DNA of 45,250 bases from Rhizaria sp. SCN 62-66 (lineage: Eukaryota), in contig MEDY01000072.1 of NCBI GenBank assembly GCA_001724265.1, forward strand, positions 62,001-107,250, given 5' to 3'. The notes beneath the pieces were generated by a model. It made no database searches, had not been told where the DNA came from, and was given only the letters and a program-made list of their open reading frames with translations. Each line of letters opens with the position of its first letter. Within the stretch, counting starts at the first letter, position 1. The translations under genes and the position numbers were made by a program. Shown here piece by piece: positions 20,001-38,101 of the stretch.

Positions 20001-23000
20001 CGCGCAGCGCGGGGGCGGCGCGTGCCCCTGCTCCGGCGCCGGCGCCGCTGCCAGCGCCCGCGTCGGCGTCGGGGCCTGTGGAGCCCGACAGCGAGTCGCT
20101 GTCGTCCGCGTCGCTGTCGCCGGTCGCGTCGCCCACGCTCGAGCGGCCATGCTGCGACCGCGCGGCCCGCGAGCGCGCCCGCGCGCCGGGGCTGCTGAGC
20201 GCGCCGAGCCCGTGCTCGGGCCGGTCGCTCTCGGCCGCCACGGCAAAGTCGAGCTTGCGCAGCACGCCCGCCGCGCGGCCGTAGCGCGCGCTGTGGCTGT
20301 CAGCCGCAGCTGCAGCAGCCGCGGCGGCGGCCGCGACGGCTGCGGCAGCCGCGGACGTGGGCGACACGGGCTCATTTACAGGCTTCGCCCGGCGCAAGCG
20401 TGCATCAGTCAGGGCATCAATCGTGTCCGGAGCATCGTCGTCGCTGATGTCAACAGCATCATCCAGAATCGCGGTGCTATTGCCGTTGTTCGTAAGCGTG
20501 TTTGCAGAAGGCGGCACCGCCAGCGCCAGCCCGCCCGGCAGCCGCTGCGTGGCCGTCAGCGTCGCAGTGCCGCTGGGCGCAGCCGCGGTGGCGGCGGCAA
20601 CGGCGGCGGCGTCCGCGGCGTCTGAGGAGCCCGTGAGAAGCCATGGCGAGCTCCACCGCGCGGTGTCAACGAGCCGCGCGTGCGCGCCGGAGCCGTGGGC
20701 GAGAGCGCTGTGGTGGCCGGTCTTGGCGGTCACCGAGCCCGCGCCCGGGGCAGCCGAGGCGACGGCCGCCGCGGCGACGGCAGCAGCAGCCACAGCCGCC
20801 GCGGCGGGAGCGGTGGCCGGCAGCAGCGTGCGCAGCGTGGCACCCAACGCGGCGTGCACCGGCGGCGGACTCGTCGAGGCCAGGAAGGCCACCGCGCCTG
20901 GGGACAGCGCCTGCGCCGCGCCACGACCGTGGCCGTGGCCTTGAGCGAGGCTCTGGTCGTTCCGGCTGCTGCTGCGTCTCGCGCCCGCGCCCCAGCGGCC
21001 GGAGGTGCGCGGGGAGGAGAAGGCGCTGTCACTGTCGCTCTCGCCGCCGCGGAACGCGCCCGCGGCCGAGGCGGCGTCGGCGTGCGCGGCGGCAGCGGCG
21101 GCGGCAACTGCGGCGGCGACCTCTGCCGCTGCGCCGCTCTCCGCGAAGCCGTCGTAGGCGACCGAGAGGCTGCGGCGGCGCGTGAGGTCCCTGGCGCGCG
21201 CCACGATGACGGCCTCGCGGGACTTGTCTGCCTTGGGCGCCAGGAAGTCGCCCGCCTCGCCGCCGTCGTAGTCACCACCGTCGTAAGCGGCATCGCCGTC
21301 GTAGTCGTCGCCGACGCCGCCACCGGGGCTGCGCGGGTCCGGGAATCCCGCGGCCGGCAGCAGCAGCTGGCCGTCCAAGTCGTCCAACACACCTGGCGTC
21401 GACACAGACGGTCTCGCTGGCACTGCTGCTGCGGCGGCGGCGGCGGAGGCTGCGGCGGCCGTGGCGGCAGCGGCGGCGGCGGCCGAGGCGGGAAGCGTGC
21501 TAGGCCGGCGCGACGCGCGCGCCGAGGCGGCCAGCGACCGCGGGCGGCTGCCGACGCGCGGGCCCGCCGACAGCTGCGCGGCGCGCGCCGCCTCATCCTC
21601 GGTCGTGATGTCGCTGCGGTAGGCCGGAAACGCCGCCGCCTGCGCCGCGGCAGTGCGCGGCGTCGGCGCCACGCCGCCGCTGGCAGCGGCGCTCGCGATC
21701 GTAGTCACGTTGGCGGGGGTCGCGGCGGCGGTCTCGGCTCCTGTCGCGGCGCCAGTGTTGATTCTGAGGTTGGTAACGCGGCCGCCGGAAGTCGACGCGG
21801 ACACAGACGCGAGGGCGAACGCCGGCGACTGCGCGCGCGACTGCGACGCCGACTGCGACTGCGAGTCTGAGCCCGAGGAGGCGAATTCAACGTCTTCGTT
21901 GTACGCGCTCAGCGCAGCCTGGGCCGTGAGCCGAGCGCGCGAGCCGCCCGCGGGGCCGCCGCGGACGCCGCCTCTAACACCCGCGCCGTCGCCGTCGAGC
22001 GCGGCCGCAGCGCGCTCGCGGGCCGTGAGCGCCTCGAGCGCAGCCGACAGCAGCGCGGGCGTGGCCAGCACGCGCTCCGCAGCCGCCGCGGCGGAGACGG
22101 GAGTCGCCGCGGCGGCGGCCGTTGCTGGCGTGGACGGCGCTGCTGTCGCGCTCTTGCTACCACTTTCGCTCTCAGCCGCGGCGGCGTTTGCGGCGGCGAG
22201 CGCGCGGGCGGGCACGCGCGGGCGCAGCGGCCGGTGCCTCGCGCCAGTCGAGGGCAAACCGGCCGCAGTGGGCGCACTGGCGGTCCCCGCAGCAGCGCTG
22301 TTGTGCAGCATAAGCGCGGACGCGGCCGTCGACGCTCGGCGCGAGCCCTTGCCCGCGCCGCCGCGCACACCGCCGCGCGCAACGCCGTCGAAGAAAAAGT
22401 ACGAGTGCTCCGCGCCCTCGTCTTCGGCTTCGTCCTCGTCAGCCTCAGTGTCGTTGCCCTCAGAAGGCCCTGGCAGGGCGTTCGCGGGAACGAGGGGTGC
22501 GTTATGGCGCGCGTGAGAGTGCGAGAGCGAATGTGTGGGAATGAGGGGCGCAACGCCGGCGTAAGAGTGCGCCGCACGCATGGCGCGGCGGCCAGCAGAG
22601 CGCTCGCTCTTACTCAGCGCCGAGCCTAGCACATAGCCCCCAGTCAACGACGATGACGACAAGGACGCTCCTGAACGCGCCGCTCCGCCCTTAACACCGG
22701 CACCACGTTGCGCAGTAGCGCCGTCGCCGGCGCTGTCGGCATCGCTGCTGCTGCCGCTGCCGCTGCCGTGCTGCTGCTGCAACTGGAACTGCAGCTGTTG
22801 CAGCTGCAGCGGCGTCAAGGCGCCGCCCGCCGCGGCCTTAGCCTGTGCGAGCGCGCGCGCAATCACATCGTTGTTGCTGCTGCTGGCGTTGCTATTGTTC
22901 GCGATGTTCGAGTGCAGCGTGGCCATGGAGGCCGCGACGTGCGCCCGCAGCGTCCGCGCAAAGGCGCGCGTGCGGCGCGTGATGTCTCCGGCGTGCGCGC

Positions 23001-24237
23001 TCGACGGCAGCTCGGCCTCCGCCGCCGCCGGGTCCAGCGCCTGCAGCAGCGCGTCGGGCAGCGCGCCGCCGCTCGCCTGCTGCGCGCCCGCATGCGCGCT
23101 CGCGTATGCGCTCGCGCCGACGGCTGAGCCATACGACGAGCTGGATGGCGTGCGCGACAGCGCGGTCAGCGTCGAGGCGTGCGCGGACTGCGCAAGCGCC
23201 TGCGCCTGCAGCTGGAACGCGGGCACTGAGAGGCGCGTCACGGCCGCGGGCGCGGACACGCTTGCGCTCGCAGCAGCCGCGGCGGCCGTAGCAGCGGAGC
23301 CGTTTGACGCGCTTGAGGGGGTGCGCGAGAAGGACGGGGGGCCGCCGCTGCTGCGGCCACTGGCGCGGCCGCTCGCGGCGGCGTTATTGACCGGCGTTGC
23401 CGCCACTGAAACTTCTAAGGGACGCGCGTCGAAGTGCCGTCCGTCTAGGAGGGGCCGAATGACTGTGGGCTCCTCGCGCTGCGTCTCAAGCATCGCTGAG
23501 AACCTGCGCGGGGTGACTGGCATCGCAGCTCCACTGCCGCCGGCAACAGCGCCAACAGTAGCACCAGCACCAGCGCCAGCGCCAGTGCCAGAGACAGAGA
23601 GAGAGAGAACACCGCCAGGTGCGGTCGCCGCGGACGCGGGGCTCGCTGAGAAGGTAAACGCGACGCTTGTGCCGCTGCGGGGACTGGCGCGCGCGCTGGA
23701 ACCGCCGCTGCCGCCGCCGGGGCCGCCAAGGGCGACGACAGAGGCGGGGAAGGAAGAGCGTCGCGCGGGCGAGACGGGCTCCGTCACGCGCACGGCGCCC
23801 GCGGCAAGGGGGTGCTCCTCCGTAGCCAGCGCGGCGAGCGCCTCGGGCACGCGCGCGCCCGCCGCGCCCGCGGGTGGCAGCTGCAGGGACGCCGAGGGCG
23901 AGGGCGACGCTGAGAAGGCGGAGACGGCCGCGAGCGTCGCCGGTGGCAGCAGCGGGTCGACGAGTGAATGGTACAGCTGCAGGGAGTCCTTGCGCGCGTG
24001 TGAGGGCCGCAGCGTGGGGCGCGCGGAGACGGCAGGCCTGGGGCCGGCCTCGGGGGAGCCTGAAGCGGCAGCCGCCGGAGCAGCAGCAGGAGCAGCAGCA
24101 GTTGAAGACGACGAGGACGTCGGAGCTGCAGCGGCTGGAGCGGAGGCCGCAGGGGGCAGCAGAGGGCCCAGCGTCAGCGGGGGCACTGACAAAGACGGCG
24201 GGGGAGGCGCGCGCCCGCTGCCGTGCAGAGAAGACAT
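8092..24237 (-). CDS. Giant (~5,381 aa) Ala/Ser/Gly/Pro-rich protein of unknown function, apparently intronless, with a split EF-hand-like core
   Basis: 16.1 kb open frame with consistent composition, bounded by AT-rich DNA. First ATG 24237 (MSSLHGSG); stop TGA. Globular-looking blocks at ~17518-18522 (QGD..., RFW, Y..LH.RI.RAL, DW..D, F...LFEISDLW, Y..FL). Confidence 0.8.
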   Translation of the reverse strand: MSSLHGSGRAPPPPSLSVPPLTLGPLLPPAASAPAAAAPTSSSSSTAAAPAAAPAAAASGSPEAGPRPAVSARPTLRPSHARKDSLQLYHSLVDPLLPPATLAAVSAFSASPSPSASLQLPPAGAAGARVPEALAALATEEHPLAAGAVRVTEPVSPARRSSFPASVVALGGPGGGSGGSSARASPRSGTSVAFTFSASPASAATAPGGVLSLSVSGTGAGAGAGATVGAVAGGSGAAMPVTPRRFSAMLETQREEPTVIRPLLDGRHFDARPLEVSVAATPVNNAAASGRASGRSSGGPPSFSRTPSSASNGSAATAAAAAASASVSAPAAVTRLSVPAFQLQAQALAQSAHASTLTALSRTPSSSSYGSAVGASAYASAHAGAQQASGGALPDALLQALDPAAAEAELPSSAHAGDITRRTRAFARTLRAHVAASMATLHSNIANNSNASSSNNDVIARALAQAKAAAGGALTPLQLQQLQFQLQQQHGSGSGSSSDADSAGDGATAQRGAGVKGGAARSGASLSSSSLTGGYVLGSALSKSERSAGRRAMRAAHSYAGVAPLIPTHSLSHSHARHNAPLVPANALPGPSEGNDTEADEDEAEDEGAEHSYFFFDGVARGGVRGGAGKGSRRASTAASALMLHNSAAAGTASAPTAAGLPSTGARHRPLRPRVPARALAAANAAAAESESGSKSATAAPSTPATAAAAATPVSAAAAAERVLATPALLSAALEALTARERAAAALDGDGAGVRGGVRGGPAGGSRARLTAQAALSAYNEDVEFASSGSDSQSQSASQSRAQSPAFALASVSASTSGGRVTNLRINTGAATGAETAAATPANVTTIASAAASGGVAPTPRTAAAQAAAFPAYRSDITTEDEAARAAQLSAGPRVGSRPRSLAASARASRRPSTLPASAAAAAAATAAAASAAAAAAAVPARPSVSTPGVLDDLDGQLLLPAAGFPDPRSPGGGVGDDYDGDAAYDGGDYDGGEAGDFLAPKADKSREAVIVARARDLTRRRSLSVAYDGFAESGAAAEVAAAVAAAAAAAHADAASAAGAFRGGESDSDSAFSSPRTSGRWGAGARRSSSRNDQSLAQGHGHGRGAAQALSPGAVAFLASTSPPPVHAALGATLRTLLPATAPAAAAVAAAAVAAAAVASAAPGAGSVTAKTGHHSALAHGSGAHARLVDTARWSSPWLLTGSSDAADAAAVAAATAAAPSGTATLTATQRLPGGLALAVPPSANTLTNNGNSTAILDDAVDISDDDAPDTIDALTDARLRRAKPVNEPVSPTSAAAAAVAAAAAAAAAAADSHSARYGRAAGVLRKLDFAVAAESDRPEHGLGALSSPGARARSRAARSQHGRSSVGDATGDSDADDSDSLSGSTGPDADAGAGSGAGAGAGARAAPALRDGAALVAARAAAFSDDPHPLPQAPAAAAAALSLTQSQSREQQPRQLAARSTMPVPEQDLEQATVQRRALARASLLSPAAMRTQQLRTLPPVAAAAAVRAAGGAVAAPPGSDDPDGDGRRGLSSDDYDDDDDHALDGKANAGDTKSNRSMGDDADGSRTLAKAMAKIALARERKAAIAAAAAAANTAAVPAASQSPPAESTMTAAEAAAAVAAEHAAAEAAQAAAHLAAARAREAQWQQAAKMALRGAEWVGQRARTRDAAERRRRRETQRRRALRATAALSGADGEAAALALSDDEDEDEAWAWAQSSAISTKVPPIDAAVAASAAAATEGAASATRSSRMNARGSLPPLSAEVPEGGDVSRVTWCLRAARRARARAREMFVHEELTAVVPLHAVGHRHGHSRGLSARRDTAPAAPGASGKAPRGAAVGAKASRKGKGSACAHPDVCKNSCRLHRPSTPAPASPAQPTEVAALAAAVAAEQAAANGGILTGGPVYAVQGDASFDSAEVVRLRRLFYQNPLLRRRLDRFWSFFFGPLPATTARRAASATQGAEEEDPEAEALRLLLRVHVDPTSGPTAAAAASTDSDDDDSEAKSNGGVNAKGSPAKTVSSIDADPAVTAAASAAAASAVSAARKDAAPSSRARLSFAQYSWLHARIARALYGRAWSPVLGAQLCLADWRRDLELDPSPGRRLLAARAKVAAVTTAAAAAAAAPAAAAVPSFASSLKRVESRGSTRAAAATATINARASGTQKFAALPLPAPTAAVPPATAKVAVTAGVTATMDDSAVSALSLSLEGFRRGLFEISDLWTATVDLTDYIVFLDTLLCKVAVAALPAVTVDAAGVTRVGGVPVPSLRDVVAAAQAEVAEENRRRALRGLPPLPRAPLPELDAVGAAGAGDGARGHGDDSDVDGSVTPRQPGESASSWAQRRRAARRRARRSRNGGAGSDSAGSDSDSGSNSFSDEDSDHDPLSDGVNSDGSPRKRGRGKGKGKGQDKNALVRKSSVDARYEAAARDLGLWGLDSDSDADIDAANAAAEAEAAADAKADAAEAAAVAAAATAGLSARGSGAAAMRAAQQRRQERVRAAAERAAERERRVMGITLQLRRLGLLSSEHVVEADADALELLETAIRDAEAASDVASENNGGGGAADAVAARRGGGLASLTADATLLAHTDAVGYVPRAKRGGGGDWISDDGLAATLGSVADAAASFTGSFVSETGSFGDGASGLQSPVVTEATPMGTPLLARQRTSTALSAGGATPTAGFGAGAGLLGSSSSLALLALPEGAGVAGLLRFFAVLRAALAQTAAWSQDRCVDAVDSLLALTSVLSGSGASTSGNGAGDAPRFGPLADPALLPEDLTRVERWRRLGEPDQDIEAADEIARAQQSAKQKGKGKGKTVHTGGLAGAGWAMDDAPSDSDTSSNSDSGSDSDSESNKNRPNSNSVRDDTTTSSSNNASLSANSSGGVSASSDDFAFTLRPAMASLAPHALAPLVLGAVAEADDEEDTADAHTAASRRPPSAAATPSGAVSGSLRPRSELAAASVAAARRGTPTLTTPRARARAYAAAVAALTPRSAAAALPRPPELADDRVGRVGKTEPKLLEDTEDEDQEDEEEEEDEEDNVARLLARPDTAPPLPRFLLTSIPRGRRAQDWAAWEAWATEADADDATALAMADDPARFIDFWREKEAAAAAAAAARAEARERRRAARRARREALARAAAGLLDIPALAGSLPEHSRLHLERLNRLRSSREPLAMTSVTPFVVDTASGHALLSPATGMDALVAAVNGGNTAHYHHHAADAHEHDTGSPSLRVTRPRASRVGSIDAMPSFVRAPSLSQLHPSLRLLATAAAAPGVGQGLGAEAVSKTLAAAPSAPVASASGSARALRVNPMLYPSLLLSVASLTKPVFAAVGPPGSSPAAAAMSTAITALAPAPVVAALRERLQQATTQAAAETHARGRGAVGHCVRVPPEVARLTTVLALTFCVWDARVTAAAARAFVTTADLESVPPRLVPGFAPPPITVITVGAAHAAATAGIEGKSAESKGAAPAGTASASAVASGVFAASLQSLLGCAEPLILESLRTVVSASAALHPVPPAVLAAAAAAAAAQAAAPSSPPTPLRRGLSVAASPVPGSVSLPSLPATNDVAAPATRHIARRLPFVLGSAGSEGDEAVDAANVATTLRAPEAVSMMHTTNSASAPAPPDQSNTSSPQAGTALSLNNQLGFPPLSITLTASSGSLLTPLQSQRQQPSASHTLQPYQQPHTRQSHTGMLATPALTPAHALALATPTAEAATPLGLSAAMTAAPTPAPSALLDEYEAARAAAARAAREQRKQSLAAQLVDRNERRGSSAMPMLTQHARAAARRESLARRDSNGALLGSYPSTSATAAATPTPAAEAVAAAAVQLQQQMQNGANPSWDAAAHQAAALRALLPSVLTVSHLDLLARDASSTSAAAELFDTPDALTLHALCGSDPLGPAALNAAAVLPQAWAVYVRLAAPLAAALHAIHLALRAREVAAANTPGGAALVVLASPSTSAPLSAALAHTVKVTVRAARRAVGLCAGVLTVMRVRAAENTALLARTAARLRFRALQRALFSAITRAFPAPRIPRRAAHASIAPSAAGSAAGSRIPSPSHTPALGTPGFGSPTPVFATAPGAGPLLLSTHGTSGAAPAAPGLSPQLLSAATPTLPAPDSAGFFAPPSGPDTVSPPSAAPSAPASPLPAPAAAQTPVAGSATPIPTVSSVSSQWSPLWTAARHRAAQQALLPLLAAHTANANAVANTLIAADALAAFSPLALLTKVIRAAALPLAPLPSSAAAARAMGPPARAPAVAERIEAFRRWAVTTLAPPAAAAVGSPAPRGRRAAGVLRTPLVGSGGAAAVAAAAAGRAKLEWTEESARRPQRLVVDRASRTAAGSAAAQLMPPGAESLARPPTPSAPRSPGLSSGEGPRGDTPRGSTHVDAESAFNSLYARQQQNRPRGFGGLGAFAEEEQPEPEHAANAEATAAATSEADSATGPVEGGVIATPATAASAGATASQALLKTANRSLMRVARAAEAAATGAGDSDAAVVESDLLYLAVGALPPPPPPARSLGSLEPTRARFAATAPAACARAAAAGAAAAAAEAAADALIVSTAFAARIEPPQRPTGTLSSSPYSVGASGAPGAGPGTGPGGAHLATVSFGARAGDGAGDSALKSWLGGNSAGGGSGLGGVLGLRHARPAHAAAAAIIAARATITAPSIAAVPRAPASATAALAASASPSRPGTAAGGYVSGDEGGRFVHSLRSDGARVLSPVPGAGATTAATMRESFAALHELAGPSAAIMAAAAAAAALTENNGSGRPSRRRGPPPAELPQLPAYSAQAPADTAAAAEAVEAESARSAAASATATKRDWSRVAITPRARGRFEHHFQGLGNLPRPDVYTALTGLPVPLPGGASASSAGTARSSTYSTAMASGRVMPSSAASGGARSAAVAASTGHIATERQRAPLAVAASLGAAFAPDSARATAALLTTHASAPTGASTARVVSNAAPGVAAARARALSFARAQTGRAAPRVFTRSAPTYDQEGAVNKTTDPESVAAAVTVMPASVGGSVTASPELPDGAESRPYTAGAAYGAYNAHVLPLSPRDADGNAQYFAPQNTYQTTSQMQSQSLLHAHAQDYGSGAAVGVGGYNVDDSARGWSSQSARSHALSQAHMPPQAQTHAAGHSRATASSLAQQQLPFRQPPPLLLFSTVPNAHAGSQDAVDWAPHAAAPAAPSMFLAMGSASARAATAAGPGARVRRGAGDARRLDLSLRHGRVLAPTTLGQAAALLTSGVAPVALAPGVNARAAAGSATAAADATAVALGGTALNARGVPLQQTAAGATIGGALGKGAPAAMVAAAARPAASRPERRQLVADASLRGSTAVAERLALARAAAERAGGVPTVLVVPDVVKQWLQQQLPPLQQQHPTVSPRATAAAEADTQQGDDEFM

Positions 24238-24651
24238 CGGCGCGGGGTCGAGGGCGCGGGAACGAGGGGAGGCGAACGCCAACGACTGACTGTGTGTGGT
24301 TGCCAAAAGAGAGAGAGTGTTTTGCTGCGAAAAGGGAATTACGGGAAAAATAAATACAGATAAGTAAGCTCAATGTATTAATATTGTACATATCCAAAAA
24401 CTGACTTCATTGACGACCAGAGCATCGAAATCAGCAAGGTTTTTTTACACCAGTAACGTCTCGCCTTGCTCTCTGCAAAGTTTGGCTGGGCCACCGTTCC
24501 TAAAAATTCCGACCTACCGCCGAGCGAGGCAAAGCGAGGGGGGTGCGTGACGGCCTGCTCGGGAATCGAGGTGGTTTGTGTTACCCGGACAGGAAGTAGG
24601 TGGAATTAACTTTTCGCCCACGTGTGTTTGGTTATCTAAAAACAGTTAGAC

Positions 24652-27083
24652 ATGACTGCTAAGAAGGCGACGGCCAAGGCCGGCACTATGCTCAAAAAGG
24701 GCCAGGTCGCTCGCGCTGCCCAGTTCGTGACTCGTAACAAGGTTCGTCCATCCGCAAATCGTCTCGTTCATCCCACCGCCGCCACTATAATCGCATTCAG
24801 CGCTCACGCTTACGTTTGTCACCCTTTCTTCTACAGGCTCTTGACAAGCTTCAGATCAGCCTCAAGGATTTCCGCCGGCTGTGTATCCTCAAGGGCATCT
24901 TCCCCCGTAACCCCCCGAAGATTAAGAGTACGTCTTCCTCCCTTCTTCGCGCCTCGATTTCATTCCCTTTTGCATCCGTTTTCGCTCTCGGCTTGCTTTG
25001 ACCACATAGCTCATCTCTTTTTGCTTCTATTACTGCTTCGTTTTTCCCCCTCTCCCTTTCCTCGGCGAGCACAGACAAGGCGCAGACGTACTACCATGAG
25101 AAGGACATCAAGTTCCTCTTGCACGAGCCGCTGCTGCAGAAGTTCCGCGACCTCAAGGTGTACCTCAAGAAGCGCACCCGCTTCGAGGGCCGCTACGAGC
25201 AGAATCTTGCGGACCGTCTTAAGGCGCCCGTAATGAACCTGAACCACCTGATCAAGGAGCGCTACCCGACCTTCGTCGACGCGCTGCGCGACATGGACGA
25301 CGCCTACTCGACGCTCTTCCTCTTCCGCTCCGTCAAGGTGCGTCTCGCGCGCGCCCTCACGGCCGAGCGCATCGCTAACCTGGACCGCCTGTGCGAGGAG
25401 TGGCTCTACACGTGCGCGCAGACCAAGATTCTGCGCAAGGCGTTCATCTCGGTCAAGGGCTACTACTTCCAGGCCTACTACAAGAACTCGCAGATCACGT
25501 GGCTGGTGCCGCACAAGGTCGTCCAGAACACCCCTGGCGACATTGACTACAACATCATGGCGACCTTCGTGCAGTTCTACGAGACGATGGCCAAGTTCGT
25601 CACGTTCAAGGTCTGCAAGGACGAGAGCGTGCCTTACCCGCCCCTGCTCGGCGACGACTTCGAGCGCGCCCAGGTCAGCGCCGTCTTCGGCGCCAGCAGC
25701 GCCAACACCGCCGCCGCCGCCGCCACCAAGGGCGGCAAGGCCGGCAAGGGCGCCGCTGTGACTGCCTCTGCGTCGACCGCGCAGGTCAAGGCCTCGTCCG
25801 CCGCGGCCGCTGCGGCCGCGGCCGAGGACGCCGCCGACGCCGCTGAGGCCGGGGCGCAGGCCAAGTCCGCGGCGAGCGCCGACGGCGACACGACTGCGTT
25901 CCACGCGCTGGACCCGAACGCGCTGCCGCTGATGGACGCCAACGCGGCCAAGCAGGCCGTGCTCTTCGCCGACATGGTCGTTCTGGTCGCGCGCGAGGTG
26001 CCCTTCGAGCCCATCGCCTTCGTCATCCGCTCTGGCGGCGGCGTGGCCCTGGGTGAGTCGTTCCTCACGGTCGAGCAGGCCAAGAGCACCAAGTTCACGC
26101 ACCAAGTCGTGGACCGCCACGCGCTGTTGTCGTACTTGCCCTCGCGCACGTACGTTCAGCCGCAGTGGGTCGTCGACTCGTTCAACGAGCGCCACCTGCT
26201 GCCTACCGAGCCCTACGCCGCGGGCGCCAAGCTGCCGCCGCACCTGTCGCCGTTCGTCAACGACGAGCGCGTGGGCTACGTGCCCGAGCAGCGCAACGTG
26301 CTGCGCAAGTGGGTCGGTCTGGCGCCGATCCGCGAGGGCGCGCAGGTGAGCCTGAAGCGCGAGCCCACTGCCGAGGAGGCGGCCGAGGCGCAGGACCAGG
26401 AGGACGAGGCCGAGTACCGCAAGGGCATTCAGGCCGAGGTCCGCGCCGCGCGCAACGAGTCGCGGCTCATCGACGCCGCGGAGAAGAAGCAGCAGGCCGC
26501 CAAGGATCGCAAGAACGCCAAGAAGGAGCTGGCCAAGCCCGCCGACGCCGCCACCGCCACCAAGGCCAAGGCCCAGCAGGCCAAGCAGCAGGCCCAGGAC
26601 GACGACGACGACGACGACGAGGAGGAAGAGGAGGACGGCGAGGAGTTCGAGTTCCAGGCCTCCGACATGGAGTCGGGCGACGAGGGCGCGGGCTCTGACG
26701 ACGACGTCGAGATCGACGGCGACGTCGACGGCGTGGACAACGACGACGATGACGACTCCGAGGACGAGCTCGATGACGAGGAGGCCGAGACCACCGCCGC
26801 GGGCGCCAACGACGACGAGGACGATGACGACGAGGACGACGAGGACGGCACCGAGCACGCTAAGGCCCCGCGCCCCAACACCTTCAACCAGCGCAACTCT
26901 GAGCGTGAGCTGGCCAAGATGATGCTCAAGCGCCGCCACTCGTACATCATCAACGAGAAGGACCGCAAGAAGAAGCTCTCAGCGCAGAAGGCGCAAGTTC
27001 TGCAGGTCAAGCGCGACGCGCACGCCGCGGGCGTCGAGAACCCCGACCTGCCCAAGGTCCACCGCAAGCGCTTCCGCAAGTGA
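24652..27083 (+). CDS. PES1: Pescadillo (60S biogenesis; BRCT domain); exons 24652-24741, 24837-24927, 25075-27083, 729 aa
   Basis: [41 protein letters not shown]...[60 protein letters not shown]...THQVVDR...[27 protein letters not shown]; stop TGA. Confidence 0.97.
24742..24836 (+). other. Spliceosomal intron 1 of PES1 (95 nt)
   Basis: GTTCGT...CTACAG; removal gives the conserved TRNK|ALDKLQ. Confidence 0.9.
24928..25074 (+). other. Spliceosomal intron 2 of PES1 (147 nt)
   Basis: GTACGT...pyrimidine tract...CACAG; phase-1 join gives PKIK-N-KAQTYYH. Confidence 0.85.
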
Positions 27084-27497
27084 AGTGCGAGTGAAGCGAA
27101 GTGTGCATTGAGCGCGAAACGTGACACAAAGCGTCAAGAACAAATATGTGACTGTATGTCGCTGTTGTGCTGTGGATGTTGACTGATTGCTTTCAGTTGT
27201 TGTTGCTTTTTCATGACACTGCATTGGAAGTGCCAGTGTAGTGTTTGTTAGTTTAAGTCAATCAACTCTAGTTCAAAGTAAGTCTACTGCTTTGCAAGAA
27301 GCGACGCTTATCTTCTTTATATATGATCAAGTCTTTTTTCATTTACATCGTTCGTTGTATAAAACAATACAAACAAGAAAACTAATAACAAGCTGTATTA
27401 TATCATCTTGATCTGAGACTATGTAATGTTGAAAAAAGCTATCTACTCGGTGTTTTCAAAAATGTACAAAGTTGTTTGTGTGAGCTTGATATCACTC

Positions 27498-29991
27498 TCA
27501 CTTCTTCTTGCTGCCCCCGCTGGTTCTGTCTCCGCGGAGGATCGCGGTGGCGAGCTTGTACTGTGACTGGAACTTACGCCGCTGGTCGTCAACGGTGCGC
27601 CGCCGCGCCGCCTGCTGCTGCTCTCCGGACCGCACGGCGCGCAGCGTGTCGTACTCCTGCGCAAAACATGACAAAACACAATAAAACAAAACAAAATGTT
27701 AGCGTAACAAAAGGAATAGCTTGGTATTGAATATGAATTCAAGAATCTACAGATTTGCGTGTCACATAACAGCTTATGAATACGCACCCTACTTCGTGCG
27801 CCGGCAAGGAACTTGGCAAGCTTCTCCTGTCCCTTCGTCGCATCAAGTAGCAACGCGCCGTACTGCGTACTGCCGCCGGCCCCGCTGCCGCCGCCGCTGC
27901 CACCGCTGCCGCGGTTGGCGAAGCCGTGATTGGCGTAGCCCGCAGGCAGGCCGCCCGCGGTACCGTTGCCAATATCGTTGTTAAAGTCACTGTCGTCGTC
28001 GCCGTCGTCGTAAGCCGCGTTGTCATCATACGAAGGTTGCTGAGACTGCTGCTGCTGCTAGCTACGCTGCTGCTCCTGCGCCATCTCCTGCTCTTTGCGC
28101 GCGGCAGCCTGTACTGCGAGCGCCTGCGCCGATAGCGGCGGCGGCGCGCGGGGTGGCACCGGCAGACTCCCGCTCTGCGACTGCGAATGTGTCTGATGTG
28201 AGGGTGCCTGTGTAGACTGTGCGCGCGATTGCGAGCTGGGGTAGACCTGGTCATCGACGTCATCGACACCACCGTGAGGGTGACTGTGAGCAGAGTGACC
28301 GTGGGCAGAGTGACCGTGAGCGTGGTCGGCGGCGGACTGGGCCAGAGCGCGGCGACGCACTTCAGGACTCTTGTCGCGTTGCTGAGAGCGCTGCGACTGC
28401 TGCTGCGGCTCGCAGCCGCGGTCACGCTGGTCACGATCACGGTCACCGTCACGGCGCTCGCGGCCTCGAGGCTGCGACGTCTGAGACTGAGACTGAGACT
28501 GCGCATGCGGGGGAGGTGAGGCGCTGAGGCCCCTCAGGTCCGCCCCCGTCACGACCACCGGAACTGGCACCGACGCGGCCACCGCCGGGGCAGAGCTGGA
28601 GGCTGTGGCAGCAGTCGCCGAAGGAGCACTCTCATTTGCAAGCTCTTTCTGCTTCTCCTGGTGACGGCTGGCCTGCTGACGACCGGACTGAGGCCGCTCC
28701 CGGCGCTGCTCATGGTCACCCTGCTGCTCGCGGTCGTCCCGCGCTTGCGCGTGACTGTGACTGTGCTCCCGACTGCCACTGCCACTGCCACTGCCACTGC
28801 CACTGCCACTGCCACTGTGGCTGCGGCTGCGATGAGCGCCATCCGAGTCGCCATCGCTTTCGCTGTCGGGGATGTACACCGCAGAGGCCAGCAGCGCGGC
28901 CTCTTGCTTCGTCACGCCACCGGTAGCGCTTGCGCTGCGGTCGATAAAGCCAGCAGCGCGGCTGGCGGAGCCGGGGCGAGTGCTGTCTGCAGTCGCGGGC
29001 CGGCTGCCTGCGCCCCGGGCCATAGGGCTACGCTGAGCGTCGGTGGCGCCATTCATATCGCCCGCAGCGCCACTGCCAGCGCCAGTGCCAGGGCCGGTGC
29101 CGGTGTTGATGCGCGCCACGGCAGAGGACGGGCGACTGCGACCAGCGCCTGCGGTGGTGCCCGCGTTAGCGCCAGTACTCATCGCGGCCGACGGCGAGTT
29201 CGCAGTCGGCTGGCCGCCGGTGCTGCCGCTGTGGAAGAAGCCGCCGTTGCGGGCACTGGGAGACGGAATCGAGAGCGATGCAAACAGCTTTGCGTTGCCC
29301 GATCCCGCGCCCACCGCAGGTACCGCGCTGCTGTGTGCATTTGCGTGATTGGACCCGGCTTGCGCCGCATGAGAGTTTGCGCTCGCGACCGAGTTGCCGT
29401 GCGTCGAGTCAGCCGTGGCGGAGTCGAGGCTCTGCGCGCGCGGGTACTGCGGGCGCGCGCCGGGGGCCGCCGACCGCGGCCGCGCGCGCCCCCGCTGGCC
29501 GCGCTGCACGAACCGGCCCCCGCCAAAGCCCTGGCCCTGGCCCTGGCCGCCGCCGTGGCCGTGCGCAGGACTGCCGGGCCGGCGCACCGCGGGCGCGCGG
29601 GAGCCTGCTCCGCCGCTGCTGCGCGAGCTCAACGTAAACGCGGCGACGGCGGCGGCGGACGGAGAGGCGCCGTTACCTGCCAGCGCAGCCGCAAGGGCCG
29701 CCGAAAGCCAGTCACCGTTGCCTTTGCCGTTGCCGTTAGCGCCGCGACTAGAGCCGCTCGTGTCGGTGTTACCGTTCGCGGCGCCGTTACCGTTCGAAGT
29801 CGGGCCAAGTCCGTAGCGCGCGTGCATCGCGGCCACTTTACCGTCGTTGCTCGCGCCGTTGCTGCTGTTGTTGCTGCTCGCGTGGCCGGCGGCTGCTGAG
29901 GGCGACGGCGCGGGGCCGCGGACGGGCCCTGCGGATTGCGGCCGGCCGAACCGGGGCCGCGGCGACGAGTGCGGCTGCTGGGCCTGCTGCG

Positions 29992-30083
<92 letters not shown>

Positions 30084-33000
30084 GTGGCTGGTGGCGGCGT
30101 GCTGTCGGTTGAGGTAGTCCGCAAAGTAAGCGAACTGGCGCTGCAGACCGGCGTTGCCCGTGGCCACGGACTGCGGCGACTGCGCTGGCCGACGCGCCGC
30201 TGACTGCGGGCGCAGCGACGCAGATTGGGGCCGCTGCGCTGCTGATTGCGGTCTCATAGCAGCCGACTGCGGCCGCGGCTGCTGCTGAGCGTGTGAGTCG
30301 AAAGCCTGCTGTGCGTAGGGCGTTGCAGACTGGGGGCGCGAGCTTGCACGCGGCGACGCGCGCGGCGATGGCGACGAGACGCGCGCGGCGCTGCCGGGAC
30401 CGAAAAACTCAAACTGTGCACCGCCGCCAGCAGCGTTGTGACCGCCGTTGTTATTGTTGCGAGGAGAAGGTCGGCCGGCGGCGCGTGCTGCCGCGAGCGC
30501 TGCGGCGGCAGCAGCGGCGTACGCGTCGGGCGCTGTGCTGCGCATCACATCGGCGTACGACGACATGCCAAGAGACTGCTGCTGTTGTTGCTGCTGTTGG
30601 GAGCGCGGCGTGGTGCTGAACAGGCTTTTGCCGCCCGTGGCCGCAGGGGCGAGGTGGTCGGCCTGCGCGGGCCTGCGCGCACCGGGGATGAGACTCGGAC
30701 CCGCAGCGCTGGCCCCAGAGCCAGCGCCAGCGCCCGGGCCAGCGCCAGGGCCAGGGACTGACTTGGTGTCCGGGAAGTGGCTCGCCTCCTGCTGCAGAGT
30801 CACGGGTACTGGCATGGGTACCGGCGAGAGCGCAGGGCTGGCGGTGCTGGGGCTGCTGGGCGGCGTCGTGCGCAGCAGCGACACGCGCAGCGCCGCGATG
30901 CCGCCGCCGAAGCCGCCGCTGAAGCCGGGGTGAGCGCCGCCGTTGGCACTCGCAGCATTGCCGTTGGTGCTAAGACCGAGGCCCGCGACGCCACCGAGGC
31001 CGGGGGACGCGGAGCCCGTCGCCGAGCGCAGCGCGGAGCCCGAAGCGGAGGCCGCCGAGAACGGACGGGGACTGTCGCCGCCGCTGTTGCTGCCCCCGGC
31101 AACGGCGCCGCTCTGACCGGCGGCGGCGCGAGGACTGCCGTTGCCGCCCATCGAGCCGCCGGCGCCGAAGAAGGCCGCGGGGCCGACGCGGGGGCTGGCG
31201 CTAAAGCCGGCACGCGGGCTGGGGGTCGGGCACGGGCTACCAGCGCCACTATGGGTGGCGTTGTGGCCGCCGCCACTGTAGCCCGTGAAGCCCGACGCCG
31301 AGGGGCGACTGCTGCCGTGACCGCTGCTGTGGCCGCTGCCGCTGCGCAGGCCGAGGGCAATCGCGGCGGTCGCTGCGGCGGCGGCAGAGACCGAGGCCGT
31401 GGCCGTGGCCGAGGTCGTCGCGTGCGCCGTCGACGCCGTGACCGGCCGCACCGCCGCCGAGCCCGGTCGTGCTGAGCCCGGACGGTCCAGGCCAGGGCCG
31501 GAGCGCGGGCTGGGCAGCACGGTGGCGGCCGCAGCGCGGGGACTGTGTCCCGGGCCGAGGCGGGACGAGGCGGTGCCGGGACGCTGCGAGGCCGAACCCG
31601 GGCGCAGCAGCGGGCTGCGGCCGGAGTCGGAGCCGGGGCCAGAGCCGGGGCCAGAGCCGGGGCGGGAGTTGGCCCCGCTGCCGTAGCCGGTGCTACCGCG
31701 CTCGTTGTCCGAGTCCGAGTCAGAGAGGGTGTACACCGCGTCGCCGTACGCACCCCCACTGCCTCCGGTGCAGCCACCGCGCGCACTGGCGGCGCGCGCC
31801 GCAGCGAGCGTGGCGGCGAGCGCGGCGGCCTCGCGCTGCAGGCGGCGCTCGTGATCACGCTCGCGCTGCTGCTGCTGCTGGGCCTGCTCCAGCTGCAGCT
31901 GGCGCTGGCGCTCATGCTCCTGCTCTTGCTCCTGCTCCTGCTCTTGCTGCCGCTGGCGCTCGTGCTGCTGCTGCCGCTGCGGGTCTTGCTGCTGCTTTGC
32001 CTGCTGCTGCTGCTGCTGCGGCTGCTGCGCATTGCTACTGCTGGCGTTGCTGATGCTGCGAGCGCGTACGCGTGTGACAACCCAGTCCATGACCTCGTCC
32101 ACGGTCGTGCGGAGCGCCGCCGCCTCCGCCGCGCTCAGCCGCTCTCTCTCGCCCGCACCGACACCGGCAGCGGCACCAGCAGCACCGCCCGAGGCGCCAG
32201 AACCCGCGGAGTGGGCCGAGCTCCCTGCACCCGCTGTGCCACTGCTGCCGCTGCTGCTGTTAATGCGAGCGCGCGCGAGGGCCCAAACCGCGCCGGGCTC
32301 GAGCTCGAAGGGCGCAGCGACGTCGAGCGGTGCGAGCCCCGCGTCGTACTCGCGGCGGCGCGCGGGGTCCTTGAGCGCGGCGTGGGCGGCCACCAGCGCG
32401 TGAAAGGCGCGCTCCGCCCAGGGGTGCGCGAGCTTGTCGGGGTGGACGCGCAGCGCCAGCTTGCGGTACCGCGCTTCGATCTCGGCCTCGGACACGAGCG
32501 GGAGCAGCGACGACACCAACGACGCCGCCACCGCGGACTGCGGCACACCACCGCCGGCGCCGAAGCCGCCGTTGGAGTTAGCGCTGGCGCCGGAAGAGCA
32601 GGAGCGGAAGGCGCGAAAGCGCGAGGCTGAGGCGGCGGCAGCGGCCTAGCGCGCGGCGGCCGCAGCGGCGCGACGCTGCTGAGCCGCGCTGGCGCTGTCG
32701 CTGCCACCGGAGTGATGCGCAGCCTTGGCGGGGCCGCCGTCGGAGCCAGCGCCGAAGAGCGGCCGCGTCCCGGGCATGCGCGCCGCTGCCGCCGCGCCCG
32801 CCGTCGCCGCGGCCTCGGCGTCGGCCTCAGCGGCCTCTGCCGCGGCCTCCGCAGCAGCGGCCGCGGCGAGGCGCGTGTGGAGCGTGGCGCAGAGCGAATG
32901 AAGGAAGGTGAAGAGCAGGCGCGTGTCACCGTAGCCGAGCGCAGCATAGTGGTGGCGCGAGAAAAGCAGCGCGGCAGCTACCACAACCGGCGGGGCCGTC

Positions 33001-33746
33001 AGTAGCTCTTGCGACGACAGGTCCGACACCGTGACGGCGCCGCCCAGCGCATTGATGTTGCTGCCACCGCTATTACTCTTGCAATTGCTGTTGTTGTTGC
33101 GAGTGGCGCTGGGGTTCGTGCCGGTGCCGGTGCTGCTGCTGCCGCCGCTAGCGTTGACGCTAGGGCGCGGGGGATTGTAGGGCTTGTTGATGTGGGGCCG
33201 CGGGCGCGGGGGGCCAGACGCCGAGGCGTAACTAGGCTGATGCTGCTGATGCTGCTGCTGCTGCACCTGCTGCTGCTGATGCTGTGACTGGTTTTGCTGC
33301 ATATTCGCACCGCCAAACGCAAACCCGTACCCGGCGTTGCCGTAACTGCCCGTGGGCGTGCTACCGCTCGAGCCGCCCTGGCTAGCGCTGCTGCCGTGTC
33401 CGTGTGTATAGTAGAGGTCCGCGGTGTGCGCCCCGACAGAGGGCGCGACCGAGGCCGCCGAGGCGCGCTGCGGCGGCCGCGTGGGCACGTGGTGCGCCGG
33501 CAGCGCGGGCGCCGGCGCGCGTGGGATGTGGAACGTGCGCGCGTCGTCGCCCGGCGCGAATGCAGACGCAGGCGCGGCGGCTGTGGGCGCGGCTGCTGCA
33601 GGGGCCGAGCTGTGCTGCTGCTGGCGGCGGGCCGCGTTGGGCGACTTGATCATGTAGACTGCATCAGGCGCTGCTGCTGGCGGCGCTGGTGATGTTATGC
33701 CCTGTGCTGGTGGCCGCGGGCGTCGCGACGGAGTTCGTGAGTCCAT
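27498..33746 (-). CDS. Large (~2,040 aa) DnaJ/J-domain protein with low-complexity tail; contains two in-frame TAG codons (32646-48, 28058-60), one frame break at a (CAG)30 tract and an intron (27657-27787)
   Basis: ORF-track pieces 32646..33806 and 29838..32546 share a frame, separated only by a TAG. 28058..30124 continues in frame past a TAG into 27443..27853. J-domain: HHYAALGY...VSEAEIEARYRKLALRVHPDKLAHPWAERAFHALVAAHAALKDPARRREYD. Last exon EYDTLRAVR...GGSKKK-TGA. No AT-rich intergenic gap between the pieces. Confidence 0.75.
27657..27787 (-). other. Spliceosomal intron (131 nt) in the J-domain gene
   Basis: Minus strand GTGCGT...GCTAAC (branch-like)...GCGCAG, AT-rich; join ARSR|EYDTLR is in frame. 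Confidence 0.8.
28058..28060 (-). other. In-frame TAG codon, probably read as Gln
   Basis: Context EQQRS-TAG-QQQQSQQPSYDDNAAYDDGDDD; the frame stays open to the intron donor at 27787. Confidence 0.7.
28772..28816. repeat. (GCCACT)n hexamer repeat encoding (GS)n on the minus strand
   Basis: Tandem gccact units; translated SGSGSGSGSGSGSGS. Confidence 0.9.
29993..30082. repeat. Perfect (CTG)30 / (CAG)30 microsatellite (poly-Gln), site of reading-frame break
   Basis: Directly counted 90 nt uninterrupted repeat. Confidence 0.95.
32646..32648 (-). other. In-frame TAG codon inside the J-domain insertion
   Basis: QQRRAAAAAAR-TAG-AAAAASASRFRAF...GGVPQSAV...HPDK; 33 sense codons link it in frame to ORF 29838..32546. 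Confidence 0.7.
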
Positions 33747-34228
33747 GTTGCGCGCGCGAGCGCGGGTTGGGAACAAGCAAGAGAAGCTCGCCGCTCGAAT
33801 GCACACGCTACTTTAAAAGTACCTGAGGCGACTGCGCTAGTCGAGACACCTTGAGTTTTAATAACAAAATATAAGTTTTATGTCTTGTTAGATGTGATAT
33901 CTTTGGTAATATTGTAATGACGATCAAATGATAGCGCACTGACCTGTTTTCGAAGCACGATTGGTAACGTCTCGCTCAACGATCAAAAAAATCCGCTCAC
34001 TGCTTCGGGACGAAGCCCGAACTTCCGCAAGCCACTCCCAGCCAGTATATCTGTTGATGGAGTTAAAACAAGTTTTTTCTGTATTAAATACTATGTTTAT
34101 TTTTAAATCTATTATTATATTTCTTATAAACCTCATATATCCACCGATATCCTTCGTTTCTTCCGCAGCGCTTTCCAAGTCCCAACCCAATCGAGACCCA
34201 CACACGCAGCCCAGCACCCGCCCACACA

Positions 34229-34963
34229 ATGTCATCATCTTCTCAGCAGCCGGCGCCCGCCGCGCTGCCCGCGGCGCGCCTGTTCGCGACGTACGGCACG
34301 ATCCGCGATGACGACGACTCGGGCGCGGAGTGGACGCGCGCCTTTCTCCGCGGGCTGGTGCCGCCCGCGCGCACCGGCGCCGTCCGCGGCTTCGCCATGT
34401 GGCGCAATGCGCGCGACAACTGGCCATGGGCCGTCCCTGTTGACAGCGCCACCGACGGCGACACATCCGTGATCACGGTGCGCGCGCTGAACTTCGGCGA
34501 CAGCGCCGCGGCGTTCGCGGCGAAGCTGGCCGAGGCGGACGAGATCGAAGGGTACCGGCCCGACGGCAGCGGACAGTACGACCGCGTCGTTGTCGACATC
34601 CGCCTCGCGCCCTGTGCGGATGGCGGACACGCGCAGACTGGCCATGCGCGGACGGGCGACTGCGAGCATAGCAGGGCTGCCAAGAGTGACTGCGAGACTG
34701 ACAAGGCCGACTGTGAGACCGTCAAGGGCGTGTTTTACTACCTCCGCGCGCTGCCCGCCCCCGCAGCTCACTCGAACACGGCGAGCATCACTGACACCGC
34801 GACTGCTGCGGATAGCACCACGACCGCTGCCAATGCGACGTTGGCCTCCCGCGGCCGCTTCGTGGACGCCACGGGGCTGGTCTGGAAGCGCGACCGCGGC
34901 GGCGACTGGCTGCGGCGCGACCGGGACCCGACGTGGTTCACTTACGACGACGATGACGACTAA
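34229..34963 (+). CDS. Gamma-glutamylcyclotransferase / AIG2-like family protein
   Basis: LFATYGTIR (cf. xFxYGTL), G.VRGFAMW...WPWAV, LAEADEIEGY, YDRVVVDI, GVFYY and GGDWL follow the GGCT/AIG2 motif order, with low-complexity insertions; stop TAA. Confidence 0.75.
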   Translation: MSSSSQQPAPAALPAARLFATYGTIRDDDDSGAEWTRAFLRGLVPPARTGAVRGFAMWRNARDNWPWAVPVDSATDGDTSVITVRALNFGDSAAAFAAKLAEADEIEGYRPDGSGQYDRVVVDIRLAPCADGGHAQTGHARTGDCEHSRAAKSDCETDKADCETVKGVFYYLRALPAPAAHSNTASITDTATAADSTTTAANATLASRGRFVDATGLVWKRDRGGDWLRRDRDPTWFTYDDDDD

Positions 34964-35024
34964 GTAAGCTGTCACAGAGGGACTGCGATGGAGAGTGCAG
35001 CGGAGTGACTTTGCGAGAGCGCAC

Positions 35025-37406
35025 TCAGATGTCGTTGATTGCGCGCACAGCCTTCGCCTCATCACCGTCGTCGTCGTCGTCGTGATCAGTCATAGCGCGA
35101 ATGTTGATCTTGCTCTTGCGCTGAGCCGTCCCCCACTCTTGCTCTCGATCTTGCGCTTCAAGCTCCTGGAGCTCCTGCGCGAGCTGCAGCGCCCGCCAGG
35201 CCCTGACGCGCGGGAACGAGGGGAAGCGCCGCGCGAATCGCTCCTCCGGCGGCGCGTCGTCCTCCGCGGGCGCCAGCGAGGCCACCCCGCACACCCACGG
35301 GTCCGCCGTCCGGGCCGCCCGCGGCGCGCGCGCCTGCTTACCGGCCGCCGCCTTGCCGGCCGCCGCCTTGCCCGTCTGCGTCCCCCGTGGCGCCGTTTTC
35401 CGGCCCGTCTTGGCCGCCGCAGCGGCTGCGGCCTGTGCGGCGGCCTGTGCGGCTGCGGCGGCGGCGTGCGCTTTGACGTGCGCGTCGTCTGCGGCCACGG
35501 CGACGTCGGCGCGGGAGAGCGCGCGCCACGACACGCCCACGCGCAGGTCCACCGTCACCGGCGCTGGCGCTGGGACAGGCGCTAGCGCGGGCGCTGGTGC
35601 AAGGTTGGGCACTGTGCGAGTGTCAGCGCCAGTGTCAGTGGCCTGCGCGCCGTGAGTGCAGTAGTCGGCGGGGGTGTTGCGCGAGCGGAGAATGGAGCGG
35701 CCAGCGTCGGTGTGGCAGTCGTTCACCCTGACAGCGCTCCCGTGATTCGCGTAAGGATTTTTCGCGGCTGCGTTCGTGTTGTTGTTGTTGTTGACTAGGA
35801 TAGAGCTCGAGCTGGCGCTTTCGCTGTGCACGCGCGTCATCCCCTGCTGCGACAGCGACGCTGACTGTGACACCGATCGTGACACCGACTGTGACGACGC
35901 AGCCAGTGATGACACTGCCAAAGACGGCACTGCGCCAACACGGGCGGCAGCGCGGGAACGGACACTCGCGCTCGCGCTCGCATTCGCACCAGCGCCAGCG
36001 CCGGTGCCAGAGCCTGAGTGAGAGCCCATAGACTGCGACTATGACTGCGCTGTCCGTGACCGTGACCGGGCCTGCGCCCTCGCCTGAGCCCTCGCCTGCG
36101 CGCGCGCCGCCGCGGCCGTGGCCGCCGCGGGAGGCAGCGCAAGTTGCTCCATCTCGCCCACAGGCTCCGCGGGCGTGGCCACGGGCGACGACACTGTCGC
36201 AGTTGCAGTCTCTATTGCTGAGGCCGAGGCTGGGGCTGGGGCGGGCGACTGCGGCGTGGCGGGTGCCGCAGTGACCGGCGGGGTGGGGGCCGCGCCCGAG
36301 AGCAGCGCGCGCACAGAGTGCAGTGAGCGCCGCGGCAGCAGCGGCGGCGTCAGCAGCAGGGCCGAGTCCTGCTCGACTTGCTCACGGCCGCAGGCACTCT
36401 CACAGTCACTGATGTCCACATGATCGCCACCGCAGCCACCGACGCAGACGCAGACGCTTTTGGCCGTCGCCGCTGTCGCCTTTCGCTTGCCTGCTGTGCT
36501 TTTCCCTTTCGACGCGGCCGCTGCTGTTGCTGCTGAGGTGTTGGCGGTGGCGGCGGTGCGAGCGCGGCGCGGCGTCAGCGGCGGGGTTAGCAGGCAGCCG
36601 CTGTGATCGCGCGCGCTCTTTGCTGTCCTAGTCGCAGTCCCACTCGCTGTCGCAGTCGCTGTCCCAGTCCTCCCAGTGGTCGCCGAAGTAGCTGTCGCAG
36701 TCGCGCTGGCGCTCGCAGCCGTGGGCGCGGCGCGCGCGCGCTTGGCGCGGTGGTGCGGCGCCTGGCGCGGCGCCGACACGAGTGCGTGGTTGCTTTCGCC
36801 GATCGCGGACAGAAACGCCGCACGCCGCGTGTGCGGCGGCTCCTGGGCCGCCAGGCGCCGCAGCTCCTCCGCCTCCGCGGCCTCGGCCGCGGCGGCCGCG
36901 GCCGCGGCGGCGTCGAGCTCGCGCTGGCGCTTACGCGGGACGAGCGCGGTGCAAAAGCGCAGCGCACCGAGGTTCAGGGCGCCCATGCGGACCGGGGACG
37001 CGTCGCGGCCCACGGCGCGGGACTCGGCCCGCAGCAGGCCCGGCGCGGCGACGGGCGGCGCCGACGCCAGCGCGGTGCGCGTGTGCGCGGCCGCAAGCGC
37101 GAGGCGGACCTGCGATGCCGTGCGCGTGGGCTTTTGCGCAGACTGCTGCTGTTGAAGCTGAAGCTGCTCTTGTTGCTGGTGTTGTTGGTACGAAGACAGA
37201 GAGAGGGAAAGGGAGAGTAACTGCGTGCGGTGCGGGACTGGCGAGAGACGCGCGCGGAGAGGGCCAGTTTCTGCGCGCGCGTTCTCTTTGTCATCAGTGT
37301 TAGCCGGTGAGACAGGGGCTGCGGTCCGTGCGGCGACGATGGAAGGCTTGGGTTTCTCGCCGATGCCCTGTGGCGAGGTGAAGACGCTGATGAGGCGGCT
37401 CAGCAT
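35025..37406 (-). CDS. Low-complexity protein of unknown function, 793 codons, with one in-frame TAG (36039-41)
   Basis: ORF 36039..37406 ends in TAG and ORF 35025..36029 begins 3 codons later in the same frame (RTAQS-TAG-SQSMGSHSG). No intergenic sequence between them; final stop TGA. Confidence 0.65.
36039..36041 (-). other. In-frame TAG codon, probably read as Gln
   Basis: Reading Q gives AQSQSQSM, the (QS)n pattern seen elsewhere in this window (SQSQSASQS, TQSQS, AQSQSQSQT). Confidence 0.7.
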
Positions 37407-38101
37407 CGCAACGAGATGGCTCCCTACAGAAAGAGTGATGGAATTTATAGAAAGTAACGAATATATAGTCAGGAATAAAGTAAGAGCCGTGATTGGCGGT
37501 CTTTTGTCACACTACAGTTTCGTCTCAGTTGTCCTGGCTCGTATTCCATCGTTCTTGAGCTTGCAACTTGAAAAAGAATGAAAGAGTCAATACGGCATAT
37601 TGACAGGCATACAAGTCATTTGCCCGCGTGTTAATTTACCGCGATAACAGTTTAAAATAATACAATTTCATACTTAGCATTCACATCCTATGATGACTTT
37701 GTTTGAAAGCTGTATCGGTGAAATTGTGATAAAACTGTGAGCGGGCATGTCACAGCGACCACAAATCAAGTTTGCGTGGCCGAGTGATGAAAATATCATG
37801 AAAATCGTGCAAATATGAACTGTATACCACACGTTTGGTGTGAACAAAAGGTAAATAACGTTTTCTTTGTTATGGCAAAGTCTTAGTTTCACGCTTGATT
37901 CATTCAAACACGTTCTAGACTCCCGCACAACAACATCTCAGCCGGTCAGTCCAGTCAGTCGGTCAACCTCGATCGATTGATCGACAAACAAACAAAACAG
38001 CTCGCGCCCTCGCAACAGCAAACCTAAAGAGCGCCCCCTTCCAAATTCTAACTAAGGTAAATGATTGTTTTCTTTTTCTTATATCGTAATGTTGCGCCTG
38101 G

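Follow-up and report, generated by a model that had tools for sequence, protein, structure and literature searches.

Nuclear genetic codes in which UAG and UAA differ in meaning are few; the available excerpts of PMC11687900 name an uncultured rhizarian, Iotanema, Scotinosphaera, Protocruzia, one uncultured ciliate and some phyllopharyngeans. A change of UAG alone from stop to glutamine, with UAA kept as a stop, is attributed in excerpts of two reports to Iotanema spirale (Fornicata), Protocruzia tuzeti and two phyllopharyngean ciliate lineages (PMC5304391, PMC11687900). The rhizarian exLh (Sainouroidea) is described as reading UAG as leucine, with 384 in-frame UAG codons in 71 genes at conserved leucine positions, and as using UAG less in highly expressed genes (PMC5304391, excerpt). 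For the green alga Scotinosphaera, UAG is given as serine and UAA as stop (PMC11687900, excerpt).

The DNA compared here with these systems is a stretch of 45,250 bp, referred to as the window, in which a preliminary description had singled out one in-frame TAG codon, the target TAG. The likeness to the Iotanema/Protocruzia/phyllopharyngean type, as excerpted, lies in a decoded UAG beside a UAA that stops: in the window, TAG stands in frame at two to three sites and 12 gene ends are TAA or TGA. In contrast to that type, the window is not ciliate-like, with exons of 65-80% GC, AT-rich introns of 100-170 nt and multiple genes on a 45-kb contig; moreover, TAG is far rarer (0.6% of presumed Gln codons) and Gln is suggested here by sequence context. 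With exLh the window would share the reassignment of UAG alone in a non-ciliate protist, but the 384 in-frame UAGs given in the excerpt on exLh (PMC5304391) compare with three in about 11,000 codons here, in Q-type contexts. Scotinosphaera is similar in that UAG and UAA differ in meaning, according to the excerpt of PMC11687900; however, serine is not favoured by context in the window, and in a quick tree the window's pescadillo protein falls outside the green algae and the plants. Programmed stop-codon readthrough likewise presents an in-frame stop followed by a conserved coding extension. Unlike in such cases, a TAG of the window lies 5′ of a gene's only recognised domain, the TAGs have no shared context, and an intron lies past the stop.

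A UAG-only sense reassignment resembling NCBI table 15 (TAG=Gln) is the probable reading of the window. The fuller proposal, in which UAG is a sense codon, most likely for glutamine and served by a UAG-reading tRNA, whereas UAA and UGA are kept as stops in a code of the table-15 type, is the one we favour on balance, if with restrained confidence. The sense reading of the target TAG is moderately well supported. We infer that the code has changed genome-wide rather than that single sites are read through, two situations which the window alone cannot separate. At the target TAG, which heads a short poly-Q run, the ribosome would insert an amino acid and read on through 90 codons; with the 131-nt intron removed, it would then read the 52-codon last exon to the TGA. 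The features concerned are collected in Table 1.

Table 1. Positions within the window of the features discussed in the text.
Feature	Position	Strand	Basis or remark
Pescadillo	25002-27083	plus	Pfam
Terminal exon, 52 codons (EYDTLRAV...GGSKKK)	27656-27501	minus	TGA at 27500-27498
Predicted spliceosomal-type intron, 131 nt, GT-AG, phase 0, 34% GC	27787-27657	minus	sequence pattern
90 sense codons 3′ of target TAG, end of penultimate exon	28057-27788	minus	without stop, without ATG
In-frame TAG (target)	28060-28058	minus	context ...EQEMAQEQQRS-TAG-QQQQSQQPSYDD...
Upstream part of TAG-bearing frame, 675 low-complexity codons	28061..30085	minus	includes (CAG)30 at 29993-30082
J-protein reading frame, first-base phase 2	30087..33746	minus	codon usage, Pfam
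DnaJ (J) domain PF00226, E=1.8e-12	32343..32495	minus	residues 440-490 of P0002
Second in-frame TAG (AAAAAAR-TAG-AAAAASAS)	32646..32648	minus	50 codons 5′ of Pfam J-domain match, no ATG between
Third candidate in-frame TAG (TAQS-TAG-SQSMGS), SQ repeat	36039..36041	minus	orphan 793-codon gene

The window is eukaryotic DNA, from an uncultured organism of wastewater and bioreactors. Its coding stretches have 65-80% GC and a GC3 of up to 0.96, and introns and intergenic sequence have 30-45% GC. The Pfam families found in it are SET, FKBP, Mss4, OST48 (two exons), pescadillo, J-protein, p24 and cyclin. Nearly all of its sequence recurs in runs from bioreactors, wastewater and activated sludge that belong to several studies of 2015-2025.

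The preliminary description had placed the TAG in register with a CAG run and, past it, about 90 sense codons, a canonical intron and a last exon ending in TGA. Each of these elements was borne out. The minus-strand codons read CAG CAG CGT AGC TAG CAG CAG CAG CAG TCT CAG CAA, the TAG (28060-28058) standing in frame between AGC and four CAG codons, and behind it follow 90 codons, a GT-AG intron of 131 nt and 52 codons plus TGA. The intron has the ends GTGCGTAT...TTGCGCAG (GTGCGT...GCGCAG) and, to judge by this pattern, is presumably spliced as drawn; the predicted splice-junction peptide LAKFLAGARSR/EYDTLR (joint 27788/27656) was reproduced as previously written. GC content falls to 0.31 directly past the terminal-exon TGA. 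The closest upstream ATG lies seven codons 5′ of the target TAG. As a separate possibility, the TAG was considered as the 3′ end (YAG) of an intron and rejected: the 150 nt upstream are coding-like with 70% GC, and introns here have 30-36% GC.

The coding signal does not end at the TAG. Codon usage was scored with a table trained on nine confident ORFs (3,094 codons), which are stop-free by definition, so that a TAG is penalised in the score. The TAG-bearing frame is the best of the three continuously from about 30150 to 27788, and the frame of the terminal exon becomes best-scoring once past the intron. Over the first 50 codons past the target TAG the same frame has a codon-usage LLR of +26.9, and past the TAG at 32648 the value is +16.8, compared with -28.5 to -70.1 past 10 true TAA/TGA stops; GC3 is 0.74 and 0.86, respectively, against 0.22-0.54 past true stops. 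The donor GTGCGT is also that of the OST48 intron, and in length and AT-richness the target intron resembles four others of the window, those in the OST48, p24, cyclin and pescadillo genes. No in-frame ATG occurs in the 142 codons past the target TAG. Thus, translation of the tail must pass the TAG and cannot begin at a separate AUG start.

In support of this, sequence divergence in the last exon follows the codon frame. A divergent contig of run X4 shows six listed differences over this exon, five of them synonymous third-position changes and one T>N (p about 0.018 for at least five of six in one named phase, by our own binomial arithmetic). As a control, pescadillo was compared with a divergent contig of library X5, and 23 of the 30 listed differences fell at third codon positions. 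The third-position bias in both comparisons indicates that a related lineage co-occurs and that the last exon evolves like coding sequence. Contigs of the related lineage, possibly a sister species, were seen in X5 and X4 at 26181-26510, 26845-27113 and 27564-27627, of which the first differs at 32 of 330 bases (about 10%). As regards RNA, no X5 contig over 27462-28315 was among those listed, and the joint 27788/27656 was not among the 15 joints listed, with 704 more outside the listing; this absence carries no evidential weight. Taken together, codon usage, a genome-typical intron, a TGA-ended exon, a downstream frame free of ATG and last-exon differences that are mostly synonymous support the earlier claim that the target TAG is not the terminator of its coding sequence.

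In-frame UAG inside bona fide coding sequence was found three times: the sites at 28060 and 32648 are robust, and that at 36041 is weaker. The TAG at 32648 lies 5′ of the J domain, and the next Met after it lies past that domain; with no ATG in between, the gene's only recognised domain needs decoding of the TAG. The TAG at 36041-36039 is the less certain case, the local frame being ambiguous: around it, another frame scores slightly better by codon usage. The three TAGs occur among 11,120 in-frame codons of approximate gene models, in which in-frame TAA and TGA are zero by construction, and the two other phases of the same models contain 12 and 40 TAG trinucleotides. In-frame TAG is more than chance. 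Glutamine is encoded in frame by 448 CAG and 45 CAA codons, which puts TAG at 0.6% of presumed Gln codons. All three TAGs fall within low-complexity sequence, and the segments bearing them are probably disordered. The giant gene, of 5,382 codons, has none, and neither do the conserved-domain segments of pescadillo, OST48, FKBP, Mss4, cyclin, p24 and SET.

Among the 12 gene ends definable in the window, six are TAA and six TGA. The sample is small: if TAG ended a fifth of genes, an assumed share, its absence from all 12 would have a probability of about 0.07. TAA is a real stop: that of Mss4 lies directly past the end of its Pfam domain; the TAA of OST48 lies 21 residues past its middle domain. 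Within this small sample of 12 ends, UAG is not a terminator, and UAA and UGA still stop. The two further in-frame TAGs and the lack of TAG among the 12 terminators fit a code change. Some other TAGs in the window were set aside. An apparent in-frame TAG of p24 at about 38500 turned out to be an intron acceptor, and the TAGs at 37514 and 1579-1581 went uncounted because each precedes the first Met, within a 5′ region rich in AT.

The preliminary description had further proposed that TAG means Gln. The sense reading in this proposal was upheld by the coding signal past the TAG, but the residue was not, as local context and a crude likelihood are what speaks for it. Two of the three TAGs fill a Q slot (RS?QQQQSQQ at 28060 and AQS?SQS at 36041), and the one at 32648, within an Ala run, shows no preference for Q. 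A neighbour-context likelihood with a flat prior, derived from the proteins of the window itself, puts Q on top at 0.96; H, R, L and W all fall below 0.01, and S is outside the top eight. It is a crude measure: there are three sites, the offsets are not independent of one another, and the (CAG)30 poly-Q tract inflates the counts. CAG, the main Gln codon, is one transition away from TAG. On this local context Gln is the most likely residue for UAG, a best guess that is not proven. The 45,250 bp contain no tRNA gene, including tRNA(CUA), and do not encode eRF1.

Homology is of little help for the TAG-bearing protein. Word-index searches returned no homologue, whether with residues 600-822 (target proteins of 523-1665 aa) or with the 90-codon tail (target proteins of 49-158 aa), and Pfam recognised no family in the frame. 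The 822-aa frame had six matches among 1.84 billion representatives (E 5e-5 to 6e-4), all within query residues 25-228, where the poly-Q run lies; we take them as low-complexity matches. The gene also carries a perfect (AGTGGC)n run at 28770-28830 on the minus strand, encoding (SG)n, and further short codon repeats (HGHSA, SQ, DR). Such repeat-driven low complexity may be the cause of the missing homologues.

Several other explanations of the target TAG have to be weighed. The window is a metagenome assembly and the site adjoins a CAG run, so an assembly or sequencing error hiding a true CAG, a possibility raised in the preliminary description, deserves a check; it has become practically negligible. 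Independent Logan contigs of runs X3 (26646-28137, no differences) and X4 (27073-28215, one difference, at 27457), from two studies other than the window's own, both cover the target and keep the TAG, with no differences at 28058-28060. The other two TAGs behave likewise: that at 32648-32646 is unchanged in the X3 DNA contig 31919-34901 and that at 36041-36039 in contigs X3 34921-36762 and X4 35414-36143. A genuine TAG could still be a true terminator created by a CAG>TAG nonsense mutation, with the downstream frame, intron and exon as a remnant that has not yet decayed. The 448 CAG codons offer many one-step routes to TAG, and an orphan protein without homologues could be dispensable. Nevertheless, we consider such a remnant quite improbable: samples from three studies, with dates of 2015-2025, all carry this TAG, codon bias is fully retained past it, the synonymous character of five of the six last-exon differences indicates purifying selection, and such a mutation would have had to strike twice more within 10 kb to account for the other in-frame TAGs. 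Moreover, a variant contig with AGC>CAG at 28061-28063, beside the TAG, has no change at the TAG among its listed differences. Independently of its bearing on the TAG, this X4 variant, with CAG in place of AGC before the target, amounts to one base out and one in. Editing of the stop in the mRNA, either A-to-I (UAG to UIG, Trp) or U-to-C (to CAG), is very improbable. In filamentous fungi, A-to-I conversion of UAG to UIG, read as Trp, is a known way to carry a premature UAG in genes. We found nothing in favour of editing here, and a contig of the polyA RNA library X5 (32402-32743) keeps the second TAG, at 32648-32646, with no differences, although DNA carry-over is possible in this library.

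A more serious competitor of UAG reassignment, still unlikely in our judgement, is a standard code with efficient UAG readthrough at a few tolerant sites by a near-cognate tRNA, often tRNA-Gln, yielding both truncated and full-length proteins. The rarity of TAG (3 of 11,120 codons) and its confinement to low-complexity segments would suit this explanation, as would the +4 base at the target, a C (TAG CAG), C at this position being the leakiest stop context. However, the three sites have no common downstream context (TAG-CAG, TAG-GCC, TAG-TCG), none of the 12 gene ends is TAG, and upstream of the J domain, the only recognised domain, readthrough would have to predominate. An intron 270 nt 3′ of a working stop normally marks an mRNA for nonsense-mediated decay, and by this general knowledge the intron past a functioning target stop would be expected to trigger it. 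There is also the question of whether the sense codon stands for another residue, with Leu, Ser, Glu, Tyr, Trp and Lys as candidates. Excerpts of PMC5304391 and PMC11687900 document a change of UAG alone to Leu, as in the rhizarian exLh, to Ser, as in Scotinosphaera, and to Glu; furthermore, the Ala-run site at 32648 shows no Q preference, and the clade of the window's pescadillo has no named member. Against such a residue stand the first rank of Q in the context likelihood, with H, R, L and W far behind and S outside the top eight, the two of three sites that are Q slots of Q-containing repeats, and the single transition separating TAG from the dominant Gln codon. A meaning other than Gln thus appears improbable.

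If a UAG-only reassignment is true, the window adds a further case, and with it an additional independent origin, in a GC-rich and widespread wastewater protist. A tentative extension, possible in our view, is that an undescribed eukaryotic lineage is at an early stage of UAG capture, in which terminator use has been lost and UAG, confined to disordered Q/S/A-rich segments, has so far returned to genes as about 0.6% of Gln codons. Such early capture, if true, would offer a natural snapshot of a stop-to-sense codon change in a GC-rich genome. The rarity of TAG could inform the debate between codon-capture and ambiguous-intermediate models. Gene callers using the standard code would truncate or split genes of this organism in metagenomes, including the J-protein with its domain behind a TAG.

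The lineage was approached through pescadillo. In a quick tree of 32 rows, hand-picked from 120 listed matches, the window's protein belongs to a clade, fully supported and on a long branch, of seven environmental sequences, none of them named. Its six clade mates are 48-67% identical to it, the nearest, among the matches listed, at 67% and 64%. The rows from Bigelowiella, alveolates, fungi, plants and green algae lie elsewhere in the tree. A first metagenome scan by pescadillo for sister-species DNA confirmed no relative and also missed the window itself. The second scan (alignment A1) gave 80 loci, the best 44% identical, and did not return the close relatives; the best locus (L001), at 53% GC, carries a 557-codon ORF that TAG terminates, and was left aside. 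A search of the ESM Atlas with pescadillo reached scores of at most 0.89, which are uninformative for taxonomy. A literature listing for such a wastewater eukaryote contained nothing relevant, from which we make no claim that it is unpublished.

The J-protein frame is probably the 5′ part of the TAG-bearing gene. Between the two frames lies a +1 change at about 30085-30170, just before the (CAG)30 tract. The J frame contains RPQSAA repeats (...FAYFADYLNRQ). Read in the downstream frame, the (CAG)30 tract gives poly-Q; carried on in the J frame it would become (GCA)30, a poly-Ala stretch of a disfavoured codon, with a TAA ending that frame at 29838. The interval 30085-30170 contains no AT-rich intron, and no independent contig across the change was among those listed. 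The +1 change could be an assembly indel, a sign of two overlapping genes or a real frameshift; it makes the gene model imperfect and leaves the TAG reading unaffected.

As a further observation, the window holds a giant stop-free frame at 8092-24369 on the minus strand. It spans 5,425 codons, has Ala, Ser and Gly as abundant residues and scores strongly by codon usage (LLR 964). Neither half matches a Pfam family and no TAG occurs in it. The frame is an orphan low-complexity gene; it ends in TGA, beyond which the sequence has 28% GC.
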